Numbered from the stretch's first letter, positions 18,918 through 63,230 are shown. The stretch: DNA of 64,000 nucleotides from an uncultured Lachnospiraceae bacterium (GCA_910588565.1 CAJUPF010000006.1:531-64530); one strand, 5' to 3'. Numbers and translations: made by a program. Notes: generated by a model from the sequence alone, not told the origin.

Positions 18918-19376
18918 ATGAAAGCAGATACAAGAATGTTTGGAGAAATTGATATCGAGGATTCCAAGATTATCCATTTAGAGCAGGGAATTGTCGGATT
19001 CCCGGATATGAAGGATTTTGCATTGATATTTGATGCGGACAGAGGCGAAGAATCTGTGATTAAATGGTTCCAGTCGATGGACGATCCTGTGTTTGCCATG
19101 CCGGTACTCGAGCCGCATGCAATGGCGGAAGACTATGCGCCGGCGATCAGCGATGAACTCTGCGGGACGCTTGGCGGGCTGACCCAGGAAAATGTTTTTC
19201 TCCTTGTGACCGTAACCGTTCCGGAAAATATCGAAGAGATTTCCATTAACTTAAAAGCGCCGATCGTCATCAATACCGACAACAACCAGGCGGCGCAGGT
19301 AATTATGGAACAGGATTATCCGGTAAAATATAAGATTTATGACAGGATAAAACGAGATTCAAAGGAAGGTGAATAG
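18918..19376 (+). CDS. fliW: Flagellar assembly factor FliW
   Basis: FGEIDIEDSKIIHLEQGIVGFPDMKDFALI... and LKAPIVINTDNNQAAQV. Lies directly upstream of csrA. Confidence 0.9.
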   Translation: MKADTRMFGEIDIEDSKIIHLEQGIVGFPDMKDFALIFDADRGEESVIKWFQSMDDPVFAMPVLEPHAMAEDYAPAISDELCGTLGGLTQENVFLLVTVTVPENIEEISINLKAPIVINTDNNQAAQVIMEQDYPVKYKIYDRIKRDSKEGE

Positions 19377-19378
19377 AG

Positions 19379-19594
19379 ATGCTGGCATTGACAAGACGCA
19401 AAGGCGAATCCCTGGTTATCAACAATAACATTCAGATGGATATCCTGGAAATTCGGGGCGATCAGGTAAAAATCGGCATTTCTGCACCAAAAGAAGTCCC
19501 GATTTACCGTAAAGAGGTATACCTGCAGATCGAAAACGAGAATAAAGAAGCCATCAGCACGGAAGCTGCAGAGGCACTGAAAAAATTATTCTAA
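19379..19594 (+). CDS. csrA: Carbon storage regulator CsrA (flagellar type)
   Basis: MLALTRRKGESLVINNNIQMDILEIRGDQVKIGISAPKEVPIYRKEVY. Confidence 0.95.
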   Translation: MLALTRRKGESLVINNNIQMDILEIRGDQVKIGISAPKEVPIYRKEVYLQIENENKEAISTEAAEALKKLF

Positions 19595-19619
19595 AAAAAA
19601 TGCGGCGCTATGCCGATAT
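19592..19619 (+). promoter_or_regulatory. Sigma-28-type promoter upstream of flaG-fliD-fliS
   Basis: TAAA (19592-19595), N16, GCCGATAT (19612-19619). Confidence 0.6.
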
Positions 19620-19669
19620 AGAGAATAATAAATACATTCACTTTTTAAATCACACGGAGGTGGTTAACT

Positions 19670-23103: not shown

Positions 23104-23193
23104 TAAATTAGGTTTTTCGTTTTGGAGATTTGTGGTATATTGATTTTATTGAGAAACTGTGTAAGGAACAGAATCCAGAAAGGAGGCTCTTAC

Positions 23194-24912
23194 ATGGCAA
23201 GGACAACAGCAATTGGACATCAAGATTTTGAACGGGTAATAGAAAACGATTACTTTTATATTGATAAAACGTATTTTATCAAAGAATGGTGGGAGAGCGG
23301 GGATATTGTGACATTGATTACCCGCCCCAGAAGATTTGGGAAAACATTGAATATGAGCATGACAGAAAAATTCTTTTCTGTAAATTATGCCGGGCGGGGG
23401 GATTTGTTTGAGGGGCTGACTGTCTGGAATGAAGAGAAGTACCGCAGCCTGCAGGGAACATATCCGGTGATAAGCCTGTCTTTCGCGAATGTAAAAGCGG
23501 TAAATTATAAAAATGCCAGAAAAGAAATTTTTCTGATATTGACGAATTTATATACGGAATATTCTTTTTTGCTTGACAGTGATGCACTGGGGGAAGAAGA
23601 GAAGAAGCTTTTTGGCAATATTTCTACTGACATGGAGGATGTAGATGCAGTCTATGCGATTCATAATCTTTCCAAATTTTTAAATAAATTTTATAAGAAA
23701 AAAGTGATTATCCTATTAGATGAGTATGATACTCCTATGCAGGAGGCGTATGTCAGCGGATATTGGGAAGAACTAACAGCTTTTATGAGAAGTATGTTCA
23801 ATGCTGCTTTTAAAACAAATCCATATCTGGAGCGTGCGGTTATGACTGGCATCACAGGAGTCAGCAAAGAGTCTATGTTTTCTGATTTAAATAATTTGAG
23901 AGTGGTAACGACAACATCGGAAAAATATGCAGATTGTTTTGGGTTTACGGAAGAAGAAGTTTTTAGAGCATTAGAAGAGTTTGGATTATCTGATCAGAAG
24001 CAAAAGGTGAAGCAATGGTATGATGGCTTTACATTTGGGAGTCAGCCTGATATTTATAATCCATGGTCAATTCTGAATTATCTTGATACAGGAAAATTTG
24101 CCGCTTACTGGGCAAACACCAGCTCCAACAGCCTTGCAGGCAAACTGATACGGGAAGGCGGACGGAGTATCAAAGAATCCTTTGAGCATTTGCTGCAGGG
24201 AGGGCATTTGTTTGTTCCGATTGATGAGCAGATTGTTTATAATCAGCTTTATGATAATGAATATGCGATCTGGAGCCTTTTGACAGCAGGCGGTTATCTG
24301 AAAGTGTTAAGCCATGAAGAATACGACGATGAGGGTCTGGTAACGGCGCCAAAATATGAGCTGGCGCTGACGAATGGCGAAGTCAGGCTGATGTTCAAAA
24401 ACATGGTACGCGGATGGTTTTCCGGCAATGTTTCCGACTATAATGATTTTGTGAAAGCATTGCTGCTAAATGATGTGAAGGCAATGAATGTGTATATGAA
24501 CAGAATTGCACTGACGATATTCAGCTGTTTTGATACAGGGAAAAACCCGTCAAAAACAGCGGACCCTGAGCGTTTTTACCATGGATTTGTACTTGGGCTG
24601 CTGGTAGAATTGGAAAGCCGGTATATTCTTACTTCTAACAGGGAAAGTGGTTTTGGCAGGTATGATGTTATCCTTGAACCAAGAAACCTGAAAGACGCTG
24701 CAATGATTTTGGAATTTAAAGTGCAGGACACAGAAGATGAGAAGGAGCTTTTGGATACGGTACAGGTGGCTTTGGATCAGATTGAGAAGAAGAGGTATGC
24801 AGCATCATTGACCGCAAAAGGAATCCCAGAAGAGAGGATACACAGATATGGGTTTGCATTTAGTGGAAAAAAGGTGCTGATTGGTACAGGCGGTTATTAT
24901 TGGAACAGCTGA
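23194..24912 (+). CDS. Predicted AAA-ATPase with a C-terminal PD-(D/E)XK nuclease domain
   Basis: Start ATG 23194 after AGGAGG. N-terminus IGHQDFERVIENDYFYIDKTYFIKEWW..., Walker-A-like RPRRFGKT, LLDEYD. C-terminal nuclease-like GRYDVIL...MILEFKV. Confidence 0.8.
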   Translation: MARTTAIGHQDFERVIENDYFYIDKTYFIKEWWESGDIVTLITRPRRFGKTLNMSMTEKFFSVNYAGRGDLFEGLTVWNEEKYRSLQGTYPVISLSFANVKAVNYKNARKEIFLILTNLYTEYSFLLDSDALGEEEKKLFGNISTDMEDVDAVYAIHNLSKFLNKFYKKKVIILLDEYDTPMQEAYVSGYWEELTAFMRSMFNAAFKTNPYLERAVMTGITGVSKESMFSDLNNLRVVTTTSEKYADCFGFTEEEVFRALEEFGLSDQKQKVKQWYDGFTFGSQPDIYNPWSILNYLDTGKFAAYWANTSSNSLAGKLIREGGRSIKESFEHLLQGGHLFVPIDEQIVYNQLYDNEYAIWSLLTAGGYLKVLSHEEYDDEGLVTAPKYELALTNGEVRLMFKNMVRGWFSGNVSDYNDFVKALLLNDVKAMNVYMNRIALTIFSCFDTGKNPSKTADPERFYHGFVLGLLVELESRYILTSNRESGFGRYDVILEPRNLKDAAMILEFKVQDTEDEKELLDTVQVALDQIEKKRYAASLTAKGIPEERIHRYGFAFSGKKVLIGTGGYYWNS

Positions 24913-24930
24913 TCACAAGGTGAAAATTAA

Positions 24931-24997
24931 ATGGTCGAGGACAACAGCAATTGGATATCAGGATTATGAGTAGGTAATAGAAAACGAATACTTTTAA
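24931..24997 (+). pseudogene. Decayed 5' fragment of a second AAA-ATPase/PD-(D/E)XK gene copy
   Basis: ATGGTCGAGGACAACAGCAATTGGATATCAGGATTATGAGTAGGTAATAGAAAACGAATACTTTT aligns by eye with 23194-23260 of the intact gene (ATGGCAAGGACAACAGCAATTGGACATCAAGATTTTGAACGGGTAATAGAAAACGATTACTTTT). It carries an indel and stop codons. Confidence 0.75.
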
Positions 24998-25019
24998 CCC
25001 CAAATTTTAAATTCAGCTA

Positions 25020-25046
25020 TAAAGTATATAAAAATTTGCCCGATAT
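25020..25046 (+). promoter_or_regulatory. Sigma-28-type promoter of flagellin gene 1
   Basis: TAAA-N15-CCCGATAT. Confidence 0.7.
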
Positions 25047-25193
25047 ATATAACAGCAAGTAAACAAAATATACCATTACCTCAAGGGAGTGTCAAATGGT
25101 ATAGAGGGATACCCAAAGGGTGTTACTTGGGATGCGGGTCTGAACGGAGCGTACGGCCGTAAGGATGAGCATTATATATTAAAACAAGTTTTT

Positions 25194-25227
25194 GCAGCAT
25201 GGAAGCTGCAGTAAATTCAAGGAGGAA
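25194..25227 (+). promoter_or_regulatory. Candidate CsrA binding sites in the flagellin leader (GGA-loop hairpin plus a GGA-containing SD)
   Basis: GCAGC-ATGGAA-GCTGC hairpin (25194-25209) presents GGA in its loop. AAGGAGG SD at 25219-25225. The same arrangement occurs at 26632-26663. Confidence 0.55.
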
Positions 25228-25233
25228 AATATT

Positions 25234-26343
25234 ATGGCAATGGTAGTACAGCACAATCTTACAGCGATGAACTCTAACCGTCAGTTAGGCGTTATCACAA
25301 GCGGACAGGCAAAATCATCTGAGAAATTATCATCCGGTTACAAAATTAACCGTGCGGCAGACGATGCGGCAGGATTGAAGATTTCTGAGAAAATGAGAAG
25401 CCAGATCAGAGGCCTTAACAGAGCGTCTACAAACGCACAGGACGGCGTATCCTTACTGCAGACAGCAGAAGGCGCATTGAACGAAGTTCACAGCATTCTT
25501 CAGAGAATGAACGAGCTGGCAATTCAGGGTGCAAACGATACAAACCAGTCTATTGATCGTGACGCTATTAACCAGGAGCTGAAAGCCCTGACAGATGAGA
25601 TCGATCGTGTATCCCAGACAACACAGTTCAACAAACAGGGTCTGTTGGATGGTACATTTGTAGGCAAATCACTTCAGGTAGGAGCAAACCAGAACCAGAC
25701 CATTACATTGAACATTGCAGCAATGAATGCTACAGCAATCGGTATCAAACCAGTTTCCGTTGCTAAAGTGTCCGGCTATATGACGACGAATGAAGTTGTA
25801 AGGAATGCTGGCAAGACAACAGTTTCTGGTACGATCAGACAGTCTATCGGTGCATTGGCAGCGTGCAACGCACAGGTTGGCGTACTTTATTCTGCAAAAG
25901 CGCCTACAACTGCATATTATATGAGAGGTGATGGAGTAGCCGTGACTACTTCTGCTTCTGTTCGTAAATATGTCAGCAAACAGGCAATGTGCGCAGCTCA
26001 GATTTTCGTTGTAAATTCAAAACAGGCAACAAAAGTCAGCTCACCGAACGTAAGGGATTCCCAGCAGGCAACAGGAACCATTACAATGATCCAGAACGCG
26101 ATCAACAATGTATCCGGCCAGAGATCCGCGCTTGGTGCATTACAGAACAGATTAGAGCATACGATTGCTAACCTGGATAACGTAGCAGAGAATACCCAGG
26201 CAGCAGAATCCCGTATCCGTGATACAGATATGGCTTCTGAAATGGTGGAATACAGCAAGAACCAGATTCTTGCACAGGCAGGACAGTCTATGCTTGCACA
26301 GGCAAACCAGTCCAACCAGGGCGTATTGTCACTGTTACAGTAA
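25234..26343 (+). CDS. fliC: Flagellin, copy 1 (369 aa)
   Basis: Start ATG 25234 after AAGGAGG. MAMVVQHNLTAMNSNRQLG..., NRAADDAAGL, LQRMNELAIQ. C-terminal ...ILAQAGQSMLAQANQSNQGVLSLLQ. Confidence 0.97.
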   Translation: MAMVVQHNLTAMNSNRQLGVITSGQAKSSEKLSSGYKINRAADDAAGLKISEKMRSQIRGLNRASTNAQDGVSLLQTAEGALNEVHSILQRMNELAIQGANDTNQSIDRDAINQELKALTDEIDRVSQTTQFNKQGLLDGTFVGKSLQVGANQNQTITLNIAAMNATAIGIKPVSVAKVSGYMTTNEVVRNAGKTTVSGTIRQSIGALAACNAQVGVLYSAKAPTTAYYMRGDGVAVTTSASVRKYVSKQAMCAAQIFVVNSKQATKVSSPNVRDSQQATGTITMIQNAINNVSGQRSALGALQNRLEHTIANLDNVAENTQAAESRIRDTDMASEMVEYSKNQILAQAGQSMLAQANQSNQGVLSLLQ

Positions 26344-26357
26344 TACGAATTTTAAGT

Positions 26358-26386
26358 CAAAGAGCCGGTGCTGCCGGCTCTTTTTG
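26358..26386 (+). terminator. Rho-independent terminator of flagellin copy 1
   Basis: AAAGAGCCGG-TGCTG-CCGGCTCTTT followed by TTG. Confidence 0.85.
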
Positions 26387-26460
26387 TAGTATGATTTAGG
26401 ACAGGATATAAGTGGTGAAGCGTATCTGGCACCAAATAGATTAAAAAAATAAAATGGCTA

Positions 26461-26487
26461 TAAAGTTTTTTGGAAATTTTACGATAT
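26461..26487 (+). promoter_or_regulatory. Sigma-28-type promoter of flagellin gene 2
   Basis: TAAA-N15-TACGATAT, followed by the same ATATATAACAGCAAGTAAACAAAA block as copy 1. Confidence 0.65.
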
Positions 26488-26671
26488 ATATAACAGCAAG
26501 TAAACAAAACAGGATTGTTTCCTCATATTTGCCGCATGGCACTGAGGAATACCTGAAAGATATTGCTTGAGATACAATCTGGATGGAGCGTACGGCCAGA
26601 AGGAGAAGTATTATACATCAAAACAAGTTTTGCAGCATGGAAGCTGCAGTAAATTCAAGGAGGAAAATATT

Positions 26672-27781
26672 ATGGCAATGGTAGTACAGCACAATCTTAC
26701 AGCGATGAACTCTAACCGTCAGTTAGGCGTTATCACAAGCGGACAGGCAAAATCATCTGAGAAATTATCATCCGGTTACAAAATTAACCGTGCGGCAGAC
26801 GATGCGGCAGGATTGAAGATTTCTGAGAAAATGAGAAGCCAGATCAGAGGCCTTAACAGAGCGTCTACAAACGCACAGGACGGCGTATCCTTACTGCAGA
26901 CAGCAGAAGGCGCATTGAACGAAGTTCACAGCATTCTTCAGAGAATGAACGAGCTGGCAATTCAGGGTGCAAACGATACAAACCAGTCTATTGATCGTGA
27001 CGCTATTAACCAGGAGCTGAAAGCCCTGACAGATGAGATCGATCGTGTATCCCAGACAACACAGTTCAACAAACAGGGTCTGTTGGATGGTACATTTGTA
27101 GGCAAATCACTTCAGGTAGGAGCAAACCAGAACCAGACCATTACATTGAACATTGCAGCAATGAATGCTACAGCAATCGGTATCAAACCAGTTTCCGTTG
27201 CTAAAGTGTCCGGCTATATGACGACGAATGAAGTTGTAAGGAATGCTGGCAAGACAACAGTTTCTGGTACGATCAGACAGTCTATCGGTGCATTGGCAGC
27301 GTGCAACGCACAGGTTGGCGTACTTTATTCTGCAAAAGCGCCTACAACTGCATATTATATGAGAGGTGATGGAGTAGCCGTGACTACTTCTGCTTCTGTT
27401 CGTAAATATGTCAGCAAACAGGCAATGTGCGCAGCTCAGATTTTCGTTGTAAATTCAAAACAGGCAACAAAAGTCAGCTCACCGAACGTAAGGGATTCCC
27501 AGCAGGCAACAGGAACCATTACAATGATCCAGAACGCGATCAACAATGTATCCGGCCAGAGATCCGCGCTTGGTGCATTACAGAACAGATTAGAGCATAC
27601 GATTGCTAACCTGGATAACGTAGCAGAGAATACCCAGGCAGCAGAATCCCGTATCCGTGATACAGATATGGCTTCTGAAATGGTGGAATACAGCAAGAAC
27701 CAGATTCTTGCACAGGCAGGACAGTCTATGCTTGCACAGGCAAACCAGTCCAACCAGGGCGTATTATCACTGTTACAGTAA
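26672..27781 (+). CDS. fliC: Flagellin, copy 2 (protein identical to copy 1)
   Basis: Start ATG 26672. Reading by eye, the CDS differs from copy 1 at a single synonymous position (TTG versus TTA near the 3' end). Confidence 0.97.
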   Translation: MAMVVQHNLTAMNSNRQLGVITSGQAKSSEKLSSGYKINRAADDAAGLKISEKMRSQIRGLNRASTNAQDGVSLLQTAEGALNEVHSILQRMNELAIQGANDTNQSIDRDAINQELKALTDEIDRVSQTTQFNKQGLLDGTFVGKSLQVGANQNQTITLNIAAMNATAIGIKPVSVAKVSGYMTTNEVVRNAGKTTVSGTIRQSIGALAACNAQVGVLYSAKAPTTAYYMRGDGVAVTTSASVRKYVSKQAMCAAQIFVVNSKQATKVSSPNVRDSQQATGTITMIQNAINNVSGQRSALGALQNRLEHTIANLDNVAENTQAAESRIRDTDMASEMVEYSKNQILAQAGQSMLAQANQSNQGVLSLLQ

Positions 27782-27796
27782 TACGAATTTTAAGTC

Positions 27797-27826
27797 AAAG
27801 AACCGGCTATGCCGGTTCTTTTTTTG
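27797..27826 (+). terminator. Rho-independent terminator of flagellin copy 2
   Basis: AAAGAACCGG-CTATG-CCGGTTCTTT followed by TTTT. The stem differs from the copy-1 terminator by a compensatory pair. Confidence 0.85.
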
Positions 27827-27880
27827 TATAAAATATCTAAGAGGAAGCTGATTGTGTATAGGGCAATTTACAGACATGCC

Positions 27881-27907
27881 TAAAGTATTTGTTTTGCTGT
27901 CCGATAT
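27881..27907 (+). promoter_or_regulatory. Third sigma-28-type promoter, heading the glycosylation island
   Basis: TAAA (27881-27884), N15, TCCGATAT (27900-27907). Confidence 0.6.
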
Positions 27908-28093
27908 ATTATATAATATCTATACAAGCATGGAAGCTGTGCCAAATTCAGGGAGGAAGCATCGTGGCAAACAATATTCGGCAATATAATTCAATGATAT
28001 TTTCCAATTACAAATGGATATAACAGAGAGTAGAAGTTGGTAGTTATCAGCTTTTTTTATCATGCAGGCAGAGTTGGCCTGAGGAGGTATTTT

Positions 28094-28420
28094 ATGGACA
28101 GATTTTCAGAAGAATTACAGCGGCATATAGAAACTGTGGAACGGATAGGCGATAAGATTGAAAATGGAGAAAACTATATGGAAGACATGAAAGGCTATCT
28201 TCCGGCCCTGAACCAGATGATGACAGGGATTTTTCAGATATTGCAGGAGCCGGCTTCCCCACTAGGGTTAAATCAGGGATATGTCGTGCAGGTATTAAAT
28301 GATATTCTGTACGGGATTGAACACAGAGATTCCGTATTTTTGCTGGATGTCCTGCGGTATGGCCTGTTAGAAATTTATCATTTTCTGGAAAAAGAATTGC
28401 AAAGCGAGGGAGTACAATGA
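28094..28420 (+). CDS. Small helical protein of unknown function preceding maf
   Basis: Start ATG 28094 after GAGGAGG. 108 aa. Its stop overlaps the maf start (ATGA). Confidence 0.5.
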   Translation: MDRFSEELQRHIETVERIGDKIENGENYMEDMKGYLPALNQMMTGIFQILQEPASPLGLNQGYVVQVLNDILYGIEHRDSVFLLDVLRYGLLEIYHFLEKELQSEGVQ

Positions 28421-30339
28421 ATCAACTCATTTATGAAAAAAATATGGATGCTTTACGGACAAAATATCCGGTATGGGCTAAGATTTTAGAAGACGTAAAA
28501 CGGAAAAAAAGAAATTTTGACGTAATGGCTGAGGAAAGCCTGACGGGTGAAGTTATTCTTAAAGTAAATCAAGAGGGACGGGTATTGTATCTGAATGGAA
28601 GATACGCGCCCGCCGCGGTGATAGATCGGTGGTTTGACCGCCAGGGGGATATTGAGGAGTACGCTCCTATCGTCATTATCGGCATTTCAAATGGTGAGCA
28701 TATACGCCGGATTATAGAACGCGCGCCTAAGACGTCGAATATTTTGATTTATGAACCATCCTTTGAGCTTTTCCGCAGAGCGATGCAGGAGGTAGATATA
28801 TCTTTTATCTTTCAGCCGGATATTCCCGTCGGGATTATTGTGGAAGGTATGAATGAGTATGAAATGGACGCTTTTTTTCACTTTTTCATTTCTTATGACA
28901 ATATGGCGTTCCTTCGTTATTATGTATCAGGAAATTATCAGGAATTGTTTCCTGAACAGGTAGAAGATTTTGTTGCGGGGATGAAGAAATATATATCAGA
29001 TATTCATGTGTCCTGGGATACGGTTTTGCGTTATGCAAATGTAAGAGCAGTGAACGTACTTGCAAATCTGCCTTATCTATATGAAGGATATAGTATGGGA
29101 GAATTATATGGTATGCTGCCGGAGGATATTCCGGTTATCATTGTTTCTGCAGGTCCGTCTTTGAATAAAAATATTATGGATTTGAAGAAAGCGGTAGGAA
29201 AAGCCTGTATCATTGCTACGGATACGGCTATGAAACCTCTTTTAAATGCGGGAATTAAGCCTAATTTATTTGTAATTGTAGATGGATTAAAGCCAGAGCT
29301 TCTTTTTTTGCATAAAGATATTTCAAAAGTTCCAATGGTTACGATGACGGCTGTATCTACAGAACCTATGGCATGTCATAAGGGAAAGAAGTTTTTTTAT
29401 TATGCGGATTCTGGTTTTGAAAATGAGATATTAAAAGAGCTGGGGGAAAAGGAAGGAGCAAATAGAATGCTGCCTTGTCTGATGACCGGAGGCTCTGTGG
29501 CGACGTCCGCTTTTTCTCTGGCGCTGAATATGGGCGCGAGGACAGTGATTTTGGTTGGACAGGATCTGGCGATGACAGGAAACAGAACGCATGCGGATGG
29601 TACGTTTCAGGATAAAATGGATGAAATCAATACGAACAGCAGAGAGTATTTTGAAATAGAGGCGGCAGACGGCGGTAAGGTTTTAACCAGAGCGGATTTT
29701 AAGCTTTACTTGGAATGGTTTGAAAAATATATTAAAGAATGGGATCATATTACCGTTGTGGACGCGACAGAAGGAGGCGCGTTAATTCACGGCAGTAAAA
29801 TTATGACGTTAAAGAATGCGATTAAAAAATACTGCAAACGAGAATTTAATGTGAAATGGCATATTGACCACTGCAAAAAGTTGTTTGTTGGGGAAAACCG
29901 TGAAATTGCAATCAATTGTTTTGCGAATTCTATTGAAAAATTAGAAGAGGTAAAAAAGAAAGCGAACGAGGGACTGCGTTATTATGAACGTTTGGAGAAG
30001 CTGGTAAAAAAACACAGGGATTCCGGTAAGGAATTGGGTAAGGTCTTAAAAAAGATTAAAAAGCTGAATCACTATATGGAATCAGATTATATGGCGCAGA
30101 CAGTTATGGACAGTCTGGTGGGGTTGAATTATACGCTTCGGCCATTGGTATACCAGATGCAGGAAGAGCGTGCGGATGAGCTTCTGGATGTGGCGGCGCA
30201 GGGCAGAGTTTTATTGTACGGGGTAACAGTAGCTGTGGATGAAATTAAACTGATAGCGGAGAAAACGGTTGTGGAATATGCGAAAACACATCCAATTGAA
30301 AGGAAAAAGAATGGTAGAGAGGGCAATGATCAGTTATGA
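28417..30339 (+). CDS. maf: Motility-associated factor (Maf/DUF115-type) putative flagellin glycosyltransferase
   Basis: Core PVIIVSAGPSLNKN...CIIATDTAMKPLLNAGIKPNLFVIVD...GGSVATSAFSLA...VGQDLA is typical of Maf/MptE-like proteins. Position directly after the flagellin genes. Confidence 0.8.
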   Translation: MNQLIYEKNMDALRTKYPVWAKILEDVKRKKRNFDVMAEESLTGEVILKVNQEGRVLYLNGRYAPAAVIDRWFDRQGDIEEYAPIVIIGISNGEHIRRIIERAPKTSNILIYEPSFELFRRAMQEVDISFIFQPDIPVGIIVEGMNEYEMDAFFHFFISYDNMAFLRYYVSGNYQELFPEQVEDFVAGMKKYISDIHVSWDTVLRYANVRAVNVLANLPYLYEGYSMGELYGMLPEDIPVIIVSAGPSLNKNIMDLKKAVGKACIIATDTAMKPLLNAGIKPNLFVIVDGLKPELLFLHKDISKVPMVTMTAVSTEPMACHKGKKFFYYADSGFENEILKELGEKEGANRMLPCLMTGGSVATSAFSLALNMGARTVILVGQDLAMTGNRTHADGTFQDKMDEINTNSREYFEIEAADGGKVLTRADFKLYLEWFEKYIKEWDHITVVDATEGGALIHGSKIMTLKNAIKKYCKREFNVKWHIDHCKKLFVGENREIAINCFANSIEKLEEVKKKANEGLRYYERLEKLVKKHRDSGKELGKVLKKIKKLNHYMESDYMAQTVMDSLVGLNYTLRPLVYQMQEERADELLDVAAQGRVLLYGVTVAVDEIKLIAEKTVVEYAKTHPIERKKNGREGNDQL

Positions 30340-44256: not shown

Positions 44257-44879
44257 GTATTATATTTGATTTGGATGGAACTTTACTAGATGCATCCAAA
44301 AGAATGTATTCGCTTTTTTGCGAATTAGTACCAGACTGTACTCTAACAAAGAAAGAATATTGGAATTATAAGCGGAATCAGGTTAGTCACAAGATACTTC
44401 TTGAATGGAAGTACCCACAGGCTGATTTTGCGGATTTTAATGAACGATGGATGGAGCTGATAGAATCAGAGAGATATTTGAATATAGATACAGTCTATCC
44501 TGATACAATAGAAACCCTAGAAAAATTAAGACAGAGAACCACGCTATATTTATTAACGGCGAGACAACGAAAGGATAGATTATTAAATGAGCTTAGAAGA
44601 CTGGATATAGAGAAATATTTTAAAAAAATACTGGCGACAGAAAGAAACTATTCTAAAGAGGAGTTATTGCAAAGGAATCCGTTGGCGGTTACAGATATTT
44701 CCAATAAAAAAAATTATTTTGTTAGCGATATGGGTAAAGATATTGCATTGGGGAACCAGATTGGATACCGGACGGTTGCAATTACACATGGATTTATGAA
44801 CAGGGAGAGATTACAGGATTATAACCCTAAAGCGATTATAGATGAATTGAAAGAATTGCTGATGATTTGTGAAGGATGA
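44253..44879 (+). CDS. HAD-family hydrolase (phosphatase)
   Basis: IIFDLDGTLLD, LLTARQ, and a VSDMGKD-type motif IV. Confidence 0.75.
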   Translation: MSIIFDLDGTLLDASKRMYSLFCELVPDCTLTKKEYWNYKRNQVSHKILLEWKYPQADFADFNERWMELIESERYLNIDTVYPDTIETLEKLRQRTTLYLLTARQRKDRLLNELRRLDIEKYFKKILATERNYSKEELLQRNPLAVTDISNKKNYFVSDMGKDIALGNQIGYRTVAITHGFMNRERLQDYNPKAIIDELKELLMICEG

Positions 44880-62804: not shown

Positions 62805-62832
62805 TAAATAATTTCGCACAAAATGGCGATAT
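62805..62832 (+). promoter_or_regulatory. Candidate sigma-28-type promoter for the downstream nonulosonic-acid module
   Basis: TAAA-N16-GGCGATAT. Confidence 0.35.
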
Positions 62833-62867
62833 AAATAAAAGAATAAAAATCACGGAGGATATAGGAA

Positions 62868-63230
62868 ATGATTGAGAACAGAGCAGAGCAAAAAGAAGCA
62901 TTGGAAACACTGATGGAGTTTAATGTCCGTCTGGTCAAAAACATGAATATTATTGTAAAAGAACTTGCCGGCGAACGCTTAGAAGACACGGATGCATTCC
63001 TAACTGACATCATCAATGCCATGAACTGGGAGATCCAGGTTATGAACGGCACCATGGAATTACTAAACGAAGATAAACCACGTATTGACAAAGAAGCTTT
63101 CAATGAAAAGGTGCAGACCTTAGGCAGCGCCATTGCCGCAAAAGACGACGCCAGGATGGCGGAAGCCTTTACAGAACTTATCCCAGTATTTGAAGCTCTT
63201 GGAAAAGCGGCAGAAGAAGTAACCGCTTAA
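62868..63230 (+). CDS. Small helical protein of unknown function
   Basis: 120 aa with a good RBS (GGAGGATATAGGAAATG). Faint resemblance to the product of 28094-28420. Confidence 0.45.
   Translation: MIENRAEQKEALETLMEFNVRLVKNMNIIVKELAGERLEDTDAFLTDIINAMNWEIQVMNGTMELLNEDKPRIDKEAFNEKVQTLGSAIAAKDDARMAEAFTELIPVFEALGKAAEEVTA

Follow-up and report, generated by a model that had tools for sequence, protein, structure and literature searches.

The 64-kb stretch of DNA analyzed here (64,000 nucleotides (nt), called the window) comes from an uncultured Lachnospiraceae bacterium (GCA_910588565.1 CAJUPF010000006.1:531-64530) and is, as a whole, a late-flagellar locus. Between the second of its two flagellin genes and a glycosylation island there is a short element at 27881-28058 that appears to be the remnant of a flagellin gene, and it is this relic that is discussed here. 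The relic occupies the slot of a further tandem flagellin unit, right after the strong terminator of flagellin B (27797-27821 plus a T-run, -16.5 kcal/mol). Structurally, it is made up of a sigma-28 (SigD/FliA-type) promoter (27881-27907), a copy of the flagellin-leader GGA hairpin (27924-27941), a Shine-Dalgarno region (27947-27958), a 19-codon open reading frame (ORF; 27964-28023) and a degenerate flagellin terminator (28032-28058), all on the plus strand. The island that follows contains 27 genes, again all on the plus strand, over about 33 kb (28094-61610), the first two of which encode a DUF8042 protein and a Maf-type putative flagellin glycosyltransferase. A sequence-only reading of the window had proposed that a truncated flagellin copy was co-opted to drive this island. 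The relic is indeed flagellin-derived and placed as the promoter and leader of the island, but it appears to be an old element maintained by selection in several lineages rather than a recent, private fossil.

The promoter of the relic reads TAAA-N16-CCGATAT, with the -35 TAAA at 27881-27884 and the -10 CCGATAT at 27901-27907, and is the third sigma-28 promoter that had been predicted to follow the second flagellin terminator. It has the parts expected of such promoters (-35 TAAA, a spacer of 15-17 nt and a -10 of (G/M)CCGATA(T/A)) and matches the consensus TAAA-N16-17-MCGATAa described for the flagellin sigma-28 promoters of Butyrivibrio, Roseburia and Eubacterium (PMC3720852). Sites of the form TAAA-N16-18-CGATAW are found 8 times in the window against 1.83 expected, a count reached by 0 of 100 shuffles, and they include the flagellin promoters at 25020 and 26461 as well as one site before flaG. 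Retrieval through the neighboring gene gave nine copies of the relic from eight lineages, namely the window, its closest relative L039, Eubacterium sp. 14-2 (L003), L047/L050, L004, L008, L049 and L052, and the elements CTAAAGT...CCGATAT are kept in all nine promoters. A CCGATAA version is present at the orthologous position in L001, L043 and L051. A scan for sigma-70-type promoters on the plus strand of 27525-28895, which covers the region from the flagellin B terminator to 28094, gave no match, and the relic promoter is shown to be the only recognizable promoter between that terminator and the island. It is highly likely to be active, with a predicted transcription start near 27915.

Downstream of the promoter, the relic leader is homologous to that of the flagellin genes, as the sequence-only reading had claimed. 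The 13-mer AGCATGGAAGCTG occurs exactly three times in the 64 kb (25196, 26634 and 27927), in both flagellin leaders and in the relic, and is followed by AAATTCA, (A/G)GGAGGAA, a start codon and GCA, each of which was confirmed. The similarity of relic and flagellin unit is above chance on alignment, with a blastn E of 2e-5 between the two kinds of leader in the window and values down to 2e-9 for orthologous relics. Eight of the nine relic copies, from seven of the eight lineages, share the same Shine-Dalgarno region, TTCAGGGAGGAA, which contains GGA at 27952 and 27955 in the window; L049 carries the flagellin form TTCAAGGAGGAA.

The coding start of the relic is a GTG at 27964 that opens, as had been read, a 19-codon ORF (MANNIRQYNSMIFSNYKWI*) closed by a TAA at 28023, ahead of the first island gene at 28094. 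Its first 45 nt correspond by homology to flagellin codons 1-15, in the same register. Over the 42 nt after the start codon, 21 positions are identical to flagellin nt 4-45, and none of the approximately 1060 other offsets in the flagellin gene that served as the null (mean 11, standard deviation 2.8) reaches this value; the relics of L003 and L004 have 20 of 42, which again no other offset reaches. The faint echo of the flagellin N-terminus noted earlier is thus significant as nucleotides but weak as a peptide, too weak for homology at that level to be of use, and the in-register nucleotide test was used in its place. With 19 codons left, the ORF holds no recognizable flagellin protein domain, and blastn of the window relic past its start codon gave no significant match. 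A box in the 3' part of the ORF, AAATGGA(T/A) at 28011-28018, survives, with changes of a single base, in most of the eight lineages but not in L004, and its frame is not kept; it may represent a third GGA site or what is left of NYKW codons.

Between the short ORF and the first island gene lies a feature that the sequence-only reading missed, a hairpin followed by seven Ts. The hairpin has a 10-base-pair (bp) stem (28032-28041/28046-28055) with an AGUU loop, and the T-run extends over 28052-28058. With 2 G-C and 2 G.U pairs its predicted stability is only -7.7 to -9.7 kcal/mol (z = -3.5), compared with -8.4 to -11.8 kcal/mol for the same hairpin in relatives and -16.5 and -17.5 kcal/mol for the two real flagellin terminators, and it scores under the threshold of the terminator scan. 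In nine relatives the hairpin is 98.6% paired, a figure that drops to 14-57% if the 3' partners are shifted by 1-3 columns. There is one compensatory change (C-G to U-A), in the window copy, and another pair alternates between G.U and A-U. The relic form GTTGG(C/T)-loop-(G/A)TCAGC-T6 aligns with the flagellin terminators of relatives at E values of 8e-5 to 1e-3. Relatives without a relic (L002, L007, L009-L013 and L046) have a flagellin gene, a GAGTTGGC-loop-GCCAACTC-T6 terminator and the DUF8042 gene in direct succession, and the position of this terminator is exactly that of the relic hairpin. The hairpin is probably a leaky terminator or an attenuator, and because it intervenes, the relic promoter could drive the island only by read-through.

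Three collinear blocks are shared with the flagellin units: the promoter (E 5e-4 to 0.4), the leader through the first codons (2e-5 to 2e-9) and the terminator (8e-5 to 1e-3). Since the relic keeps both ends of such a unit, promoter, leader and start on one side and terminator on the other, it is best described as a flagellin unit with its body deleted, and its descent from a flagellin gene is very probable.

An orthologous relic precedes the DUF8042 gene in L039, L003, L047/L050, L004, L008, L049 and L052. The Maf proteins of these lineages are 70-87% identical, and 4-fold degenerate sites are 33-45% identical and hence saturated, with the exception of the pair L003/L047. Kept nonetheless are CTAAAGT...CCGATAT, AGCA(T/A)GGA(A/G)GCT, TTCA(G/A)GGAGGAA, the ATG or GTG start and the hairpin, and variation in sequence and length is seen between promoter and box, in the short ORF and 3' of the hairpin. 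At least five of the lineages that keep promoter, GGA box, Shine-Dalgarno, start codon and hairpin are independent of one another. As these boxes have been kept although the 4-fold sites of maf are saturated, the relic would be maintained by selection, and the comparison across lineages shows an element that is old and under purifying selection. Seven of the eight relic lineages carry AGGGAGG, whereas all flagellin leaders carry AAGGAGG, and for this reason the similarity is not simply refreshed by gene conversion; the relics appear to evolve as a lineage of their own that is not overwritten by the flagellin genes. In L003 the neighbors of relic and island are choline-uptake genes, a cluster for choline kinase, cytidylyltransferase and a BCCT transporter, and no flagellin gene lies nearer than 6 kb. 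In a rough neighbor-joining tree of Maf, the relic-bearing and reduced forms fall mostly in one clade and the relic-less forms are basal.

The reduced form is found in L001, L043 and L051, where promoter and GGA hairpin are fused onto the AUGGAGGA Shine-Dalgarno (GGAGGA) of the DUF8042 gene and both the short ORF and the terminator hairpin are lost. In an L004-like organism, a second cassette with a relic-type Shine-Dalgarno restarts the island after an insertion on the opposite strand. This cassette, a sigma-28 promoter with GGA hairpin and TTCAGGGAGGAAG, lies 4.8 kb into the island (L016, 5000-5260 on the minus strand; the same region in L018, L019, L021 and L024). A poly-G tract in its short ORF counts 8, 9, 10 or 11 G depending on the metagenome contig, which could be phase variation or assembly noise, and the ORF is followed by a good terminator. 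The relic regions of L003 and L047/L050 show many differences despite Maf proteins that are 98% identical (95% at 4-fold sites), which suggests a recombination boundary near the relic.

The relic also retains the parts of the flagellin leader at which CsrA, an RNA-binding translational repressor, might act. Putative CsrA site 1 is the hairpin CAAGCAUGGAAGCUGUG (27924-27941), with its GGA at 27932-27934, and putative site 2 is in the Shine-Dalgarno region. The two GGA sites are about 20 nt apart, spaced as in the flagellin leader and within the 10-63 nt expected of CsrA-repressed leaders, and one of them overlaps the Shine-Dalgarno. The CAUGGAAG of the putative hairpin loop fits CANGGANG, the loop motif bound by CsrA with high affinity (PMC4894983). 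Across 17 flagellin and relic leaders, a 5-bp stem presenting A(U/A/G)GGA(A/G/C) is 92.9% paired with compensatory changes in 3 of its 5 pairs; its covariation is equaled in 0 of 500 shuffles. Both csrA and fliW, which encodes the protein antagonist of CsrA, are within the window. From these features we infer that CsrA may bind the relic leader, and the chance that it truly controls this leader is about even.

Together, these data favor, with reasonable though not strong confidence, a reading in which selection has preserved the flagellin-unit remnant at 27881-28058 as a promoter and leader devoted to the glycosylation operon, with a leaky terminator and possibly with CsrA control. What the remnant retains for this role is the sigma-28 promoter, a leader with two GGA sites, the start with about 15 codons (now the 19-codon ORF) and a weakened terminator. 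That it serves the island is supported by the strong terminator upstream, the lack of a sigma-70-type match, the L003 relic with its island but no adjacent flagellin, the reduced forms fused to the DUF8042 gene and the reuse of the cassette in the L004-like organism. Sigma-28 RNA polymerase would initiate near 27915, and a fraction of the transcripts would get past the weak hairpin and T-run at 28032-28058 into the DUF8042, maf and glycosyltransferase genes; that such read-through feeds the island is somewhat probable. Ribosomes loading at the strong Shine-Dalgarno and start of the short ORF could stabilize the long mRNA or sustain its transcription, a step proposed by analogy. CsrA (encoded at 19379), antagonized by FliW (18918), would bind the two GGA sites and block ribosome loading. 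The outcome would be that the glycosylation genes are placed on the late-flagellar timing of flagellin, and possibly under the same FliW-CsrA checkpoint. As in C. difficile (PMC3865298), relic-less relatives would owe their sigma-28 dependence to transcription that runs on from the flagellin promoter, and the relic looks like this design after the last flagellin copy had lost its body and its terminator had weakened. Because promoter, leader, start and weakened terminator are conserved across relatives, the relic probably couples the sugar-adding genes to the circuit that controls flagellin itself.

Several observations weigh against this reading. A conserved hairpin with T7 sits between the promoter and the island and might end most transcripts, and its covariation is weak, with a single compensatory pair and a score equaled by 114 of 500 shuffles. 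The GGA hairpin of the window, with 3 canonical pairs, is the weakest copy of all and is absent from the minimum-free-energy fold, in contrast to the 7-bp hairpin of the flagellin leader at -9.9 kcal/mol. A natural variant, G27933A, turns the GGA into GAA in one of nine strain contigs of the window species (L034), the rest of the relic being identical in all nine. The Maf tree, which hints at a single origin, is a rough neighbor-joining tree and has exceptions. One sigma-28 transcript over the 33 kb, as had been proposed, is a putative one, and further sigma-28-like sites lie at 44705 and 56108 (both inside ORFs) and at 62805. The suggestion that the relic acts as an upstream ORF draws mixed support. 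A translatable short ORF with an ATG or GTG start is always present in relatives with the relic, but its length (10-28 codons), its frame and the distance from its stop to the hairpin (9-86 nt) are all variable. Attenuation by ribosome occlusion, with the stop near the terminator, suits the window (9 nt) and L039 (11 nt) and fails elsewhere (38, 86, 29 and 19 nt in the other four of six copies), and because of this variability no simple model of the kind suits all lineages. Neither a conserved relation of stop and terminator (six relatives) nor a conserved antiterminator was seen, either of which would be expected of a leader-peptide attenuator. Finally, the hairpin of L004 overlaps a perfect TTGACA-N16-TATAAT and L008 has TTGGCA-N17-TATGAT, and a housekeeping promoter may lie over the hairpin in some relatives as well.

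This last point also favors an arrangement in which the sigma-28 transcript is a stand-alone RNA of about 145 nt, terminated at the hairpin, whose copied CsrA sites would make it a CsrA decoy or small regulatory RNA, with the island transcribed from a housekeeping promoter over the hairpin (TTGGTA 28037-28042, TATCAT 28058-28063). The hairpin and T-run do have the form of an intrinsic terminator and are conserved, the second cassette of the L004-like organism also has a short ORF followed by a good terminator, and the flaA leader of C. jejuni is known to titrate CsrA (PMC4894983). Against this, the hairpin is half as stable as the real flagellin terminators, and L001, L043 and L051 have dropped it altogether and fused the promoter to the gene. 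The housekeeping promoter itself was downgraded: its -35 and -10 elements in the window are 15 nt apart and escaped the promoter scan, a -10 element is missing altogether from the closest relative L039, the spacer ranges over 15-18 nt across lineages, and the right arm of the hairpin is conserved though it would be mere spacer. Nor is there a sponge-like enrichment, since the 144 nt contain 4 GGA where about 3 are expected. An Rfam scan of 24800-28500 at E <= 1 gave 0 matches, which means that no known riboswitch or small-RNA family accounts for the relic or for the long flagellin leaders, and a CsrA sponge of the CsrB/RsmZ type was rejected on this and on the GGA density. A stand-alone RNA is accordingly judged unlikely, and a little less likely still is the more specific proposal of a sigma-28-timed RNA of about 145 nt that either spares flagellin mRNA as a CsrA decoy or acts as a CsrA-controlled attenuator gating the weak terminator. 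If that proposal were true, the FliW-CsrA flagellin-secretion checkpoint would directly gate the flagellin-modifying enzymes, and the relic would be the first such RNA-level antagonist or attenuator of CsrA in Firmicutes.

It is also conceivable that the relic is a non-functional pseudogene remnant whose likeness to the flagellin leader comes only from recent duplication or gene conversion. Gene conversion is clearly active at the locus (1 difference in the 1110 nt of the two flagellin coding sequences), the short peptide lacks conservation, the first GGA is gone in one strain and the stem of the GGA hairpin is degraded in the window. A neutral remnant is nevertheless improbable in view of functional boxes that are near-invariant across lineages with saturated synonymous sites, of the AGGGAGG shared by most relics where flagellin has AAGGAGG, and of the L003 relic, which persists with no adjacent flagellin to act as a conversion donor. 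Selection could instead act on the product of the short ORF, a functional micro-protein that might be a regulator, say, or imitate an export signal. Its start codon and strong Shine-Dalgarno are always there, and NY[KI]W recurs at codons 15-18 in the same frame in the window, L003 and L052 (NYIG in L049). The ORF is, however, frameshifted or cut to 10-18 codons in L039, L004, L008 and L047/L050, and the conserved box is equally readable as a nucleotide motif, AAAUGGA(A/U), which makes a micro-protein very improbable. Least probable of all is convergence, by which any gene regulated by sigma-28 and CsrA would come to carry such a promoter, GGA hairpin and GGAGGA Shine-Dalgarno with no need of flagellin ancestry. 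While flaG (19592) and ORF 62868 (62805) do have sigma-28-like promoters with a CACGGAGG Shine-Dalgarno, these units share short motifs only; the relic adds a 13-nt exact match, AAATTCA, the spacing, GCA after the start, an in-register coding likeness and a homologous terminator.

Among known systems, a close parallel is found in Clostridioides difficile, where the fliC promoter also transcribes the F2 flagellar glycosylation genes downstream of fliC and thereby makes them SigD-dependent (El Meouche et al. 2013, PMC3865298). As in C. difficile, a flagellin gene of the Clostridia is here followed by glycosyltransferase and glycan genes that would depend on the flagellar sigma factor, and the relic-less relatives listed above have exactly the C. 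difficile layout. That study found no SigD promoter upstream of the glycosylation cluster (PMC3865298). The island of the window, in contrast, has a sigma-28 promoter and flagellin-type leader of its own, from a decayed flagellin copy and beyond a strong terminator. Sigma-28 control of flagellin glycosylation genes was already known (PMC3865298), and it is the architecture that appears to be new. Literature searches on Lachnospiraceae found nothing on a conserved flagellin-gene remnant that serves as the promoter and leader cassette of a glycosylation operon.

CsrA and FliW are the second point of comparison. The hag leader of Bacillus subtilis is reportedly under CsrA-FliW control. The same kind of control of a flagellin leader has been described for C. 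difficile fliC (PMC8523840) and for C. jejuni flaA (PMC4894983). Like these leaders, that of the relic has two GGA sites, one in a putative hairpin loop and one in the Shine-Dalgarno, about 20 nt apart, and csrA and fliW are in the same locus. Unlike them, the putative sites precede a 19-codon relic ORF and a glycosylation operon, and the stem in the window is predicted to be weak. In Helicobacter pylori, jhp0106 (PseE, a Maf-type flagellin glycosyltransferase) is under CsrA/RpoN control (PMC5368276), which likewise ties a Maf-family gene to CsrA and a flagellar sigma factor, although the control is indirect via RpoN, in a proteobacterium, and involves neither leader mimicry nor a gene relic. 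The flaA mRNA leader of C. jejuni, with two GGA sites, acts in trans as a CsrA sponge (Dugar et al. 2016, PMC4894983). The relic would yield such a leader without flagellin, whereas flaA is a full-length mRNA, and as GGA density is not raised in the relic a sponge is the minority reading. For the proposed stabilization by ribosomes, the parallels are analogies only, resting on a strong Shine-Dalgarno and start near the 5' end of a long transcript. Strong Shine-Dalgarno sequences are said to act as 5' stabilizers in Firmicutes, and ribosomes reportedly protect hag mRNA from RNase J1.

In many bacteria flagellin must be glycosylated before or during export, and the supply of enzyme must therefore match that of flagellin. 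The locus suggests a simple evolutionary route to this end, in which a redundant flagellin copy loses its coding body while its promoter and leader are taken over to control the modifying operon. In this way the genes for the enzymes would inherit the transcriptional, and possibly the post-transcriptional, control of their substrate. Flagellins of gut Lachnospiraceae (CBir1 and Fla2 type) are major immune antigens, and the locus offers a concrete test case for a FliW-CsrA checkpoint that reaches beyond flagellin in these bacteria. The relic would clearly exemplify how a pseudogene remnant can come under purifying selection as a regulatory cassette; the principle of regulation itself is not new.

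Among the genes of the island, the first (28094-28420) encodes a DUF8042 protein of 108 amino acids (aa) and has a Shine-Dalgarno GAGGAGG at 28081-28087. Its AlphaFold model is a four-helix bundle with a pLDDT (the model's per-residue confidence score) of 90.5. A Foldseek search of this model against PDB gave no match with E < 0.4, and FliS was seen only among weak, generic four-helix bundles. The DUF8042 gene is immediately 5' of the Maf gene in every relative examined. The Maf-type (MptE-like) protein is encoded at 28417-30339 (Pfam PF01973, E = 4e-36; Maf_flag10_N), and the rest of the glycan biosynthesis and transfer cluster extends over 30336-61610. This part contains family-2 and group-1 glycosyltransferases, NeuB, DegT aminotransferases, FdtA, radical SAM proteins, FkbM methyltransferases, epimerases/dehydratases and nucleotidyltransferases. 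No gap between genes within 30336-61610 exceeds 103 nt, and no internal terminator detected there is convincing.

Upstream, the genes are arranged 5' to 3' as flgN, flgK, a second FlgK-domain gene, fliW, csrA, flaG, fliD, fliS, an flgN-like gene, an AAA-ATPase/PD-(D/E)XK gene, flagellin A and flagellin B. The fliW gene is at 18918-19376 on the plus strand (Pfam FliW, E = 4e-35) and is adjoined by a 71-aa ORF at 19379-19594 on the same strand (MLALTRRKGESLVI...GISAPKEVPIYRKEVY), which we take to be csrA from its recognizable sequence and its position beside fliW rather than from a Pfam match. Shortly before the flaG promoter, the 3' end of csrA contains AGCACGGAAGCTG (19556-19568), which is one mismatch from the 13-mer and may be a chance occurrence or an autoregulatory site. 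At 19592-19661 and 62805-62868, sigma-28-like promoters are followed by the Shine-Dalgarno context (A/T)CACGGAGG, which fits the CsrA motif CANGGANG; the former precedes flaG and the latter a 120-aa ORF (62868) and a hexapeptide transferase gene past the main island. The predicted AAA-ATPase/PD-(D/E)XK (PDDEXK_9) gene, at 23122-24912 between the flgN-like gene and the flagellins, has the same place in L039.

The flagellin A unit (25020-26343, plus strand) has its sigma-28 promoter at 25020-25046, a leader of about 190 nt with the GGA hairpin GCAGCATGGAAGCTGC and the 13-mer at 25196-25208, and its coding sequence at 25234-26343. The flagellin B unit (26461-27828, plus strand) has its promoter at 26461-26487, the 13-mer at 26634-26646 and its coding sequence at 26672-27781. 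As the two coding sequences differ at only 1 of 1110 nt, ongoing gene conversion between the tandem copies is indicated; the leaders diverge upstream of about -55. The box GGAGCGTACGGCC is conserved in the flagellin leaders of about 190 nt (25146-25158 and 26585-26597 in the window), and flagellin leaders of other lineages, L004 and L008 among those compared, have CTAACCTAGGGG or ATCCTAGGG boxes instead.

The nearest named relatives of the window are Lachnospiraceae of the mouse and human gut, Agathobacter and Roseburia metagenome-assembled genomes, and Eubacterium sp. 14-2, a cultured organism. The exact 108-aa protein was found in GCA_948846985.1 (locus L030), which shows no difference from the window in the sequence compared, 322 nt upstream and 3800 nt downstream. 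The contigs with this exact protein, nine places being shown, end 320-380 nt upstream of its gene and are informative on strain variation only; the breaks are probably due to assemblies collapsing the duplicated flagellins. A pattern scan of metagenome contigs returned mainly chance matches, plus L004-like and L003-like organisms.

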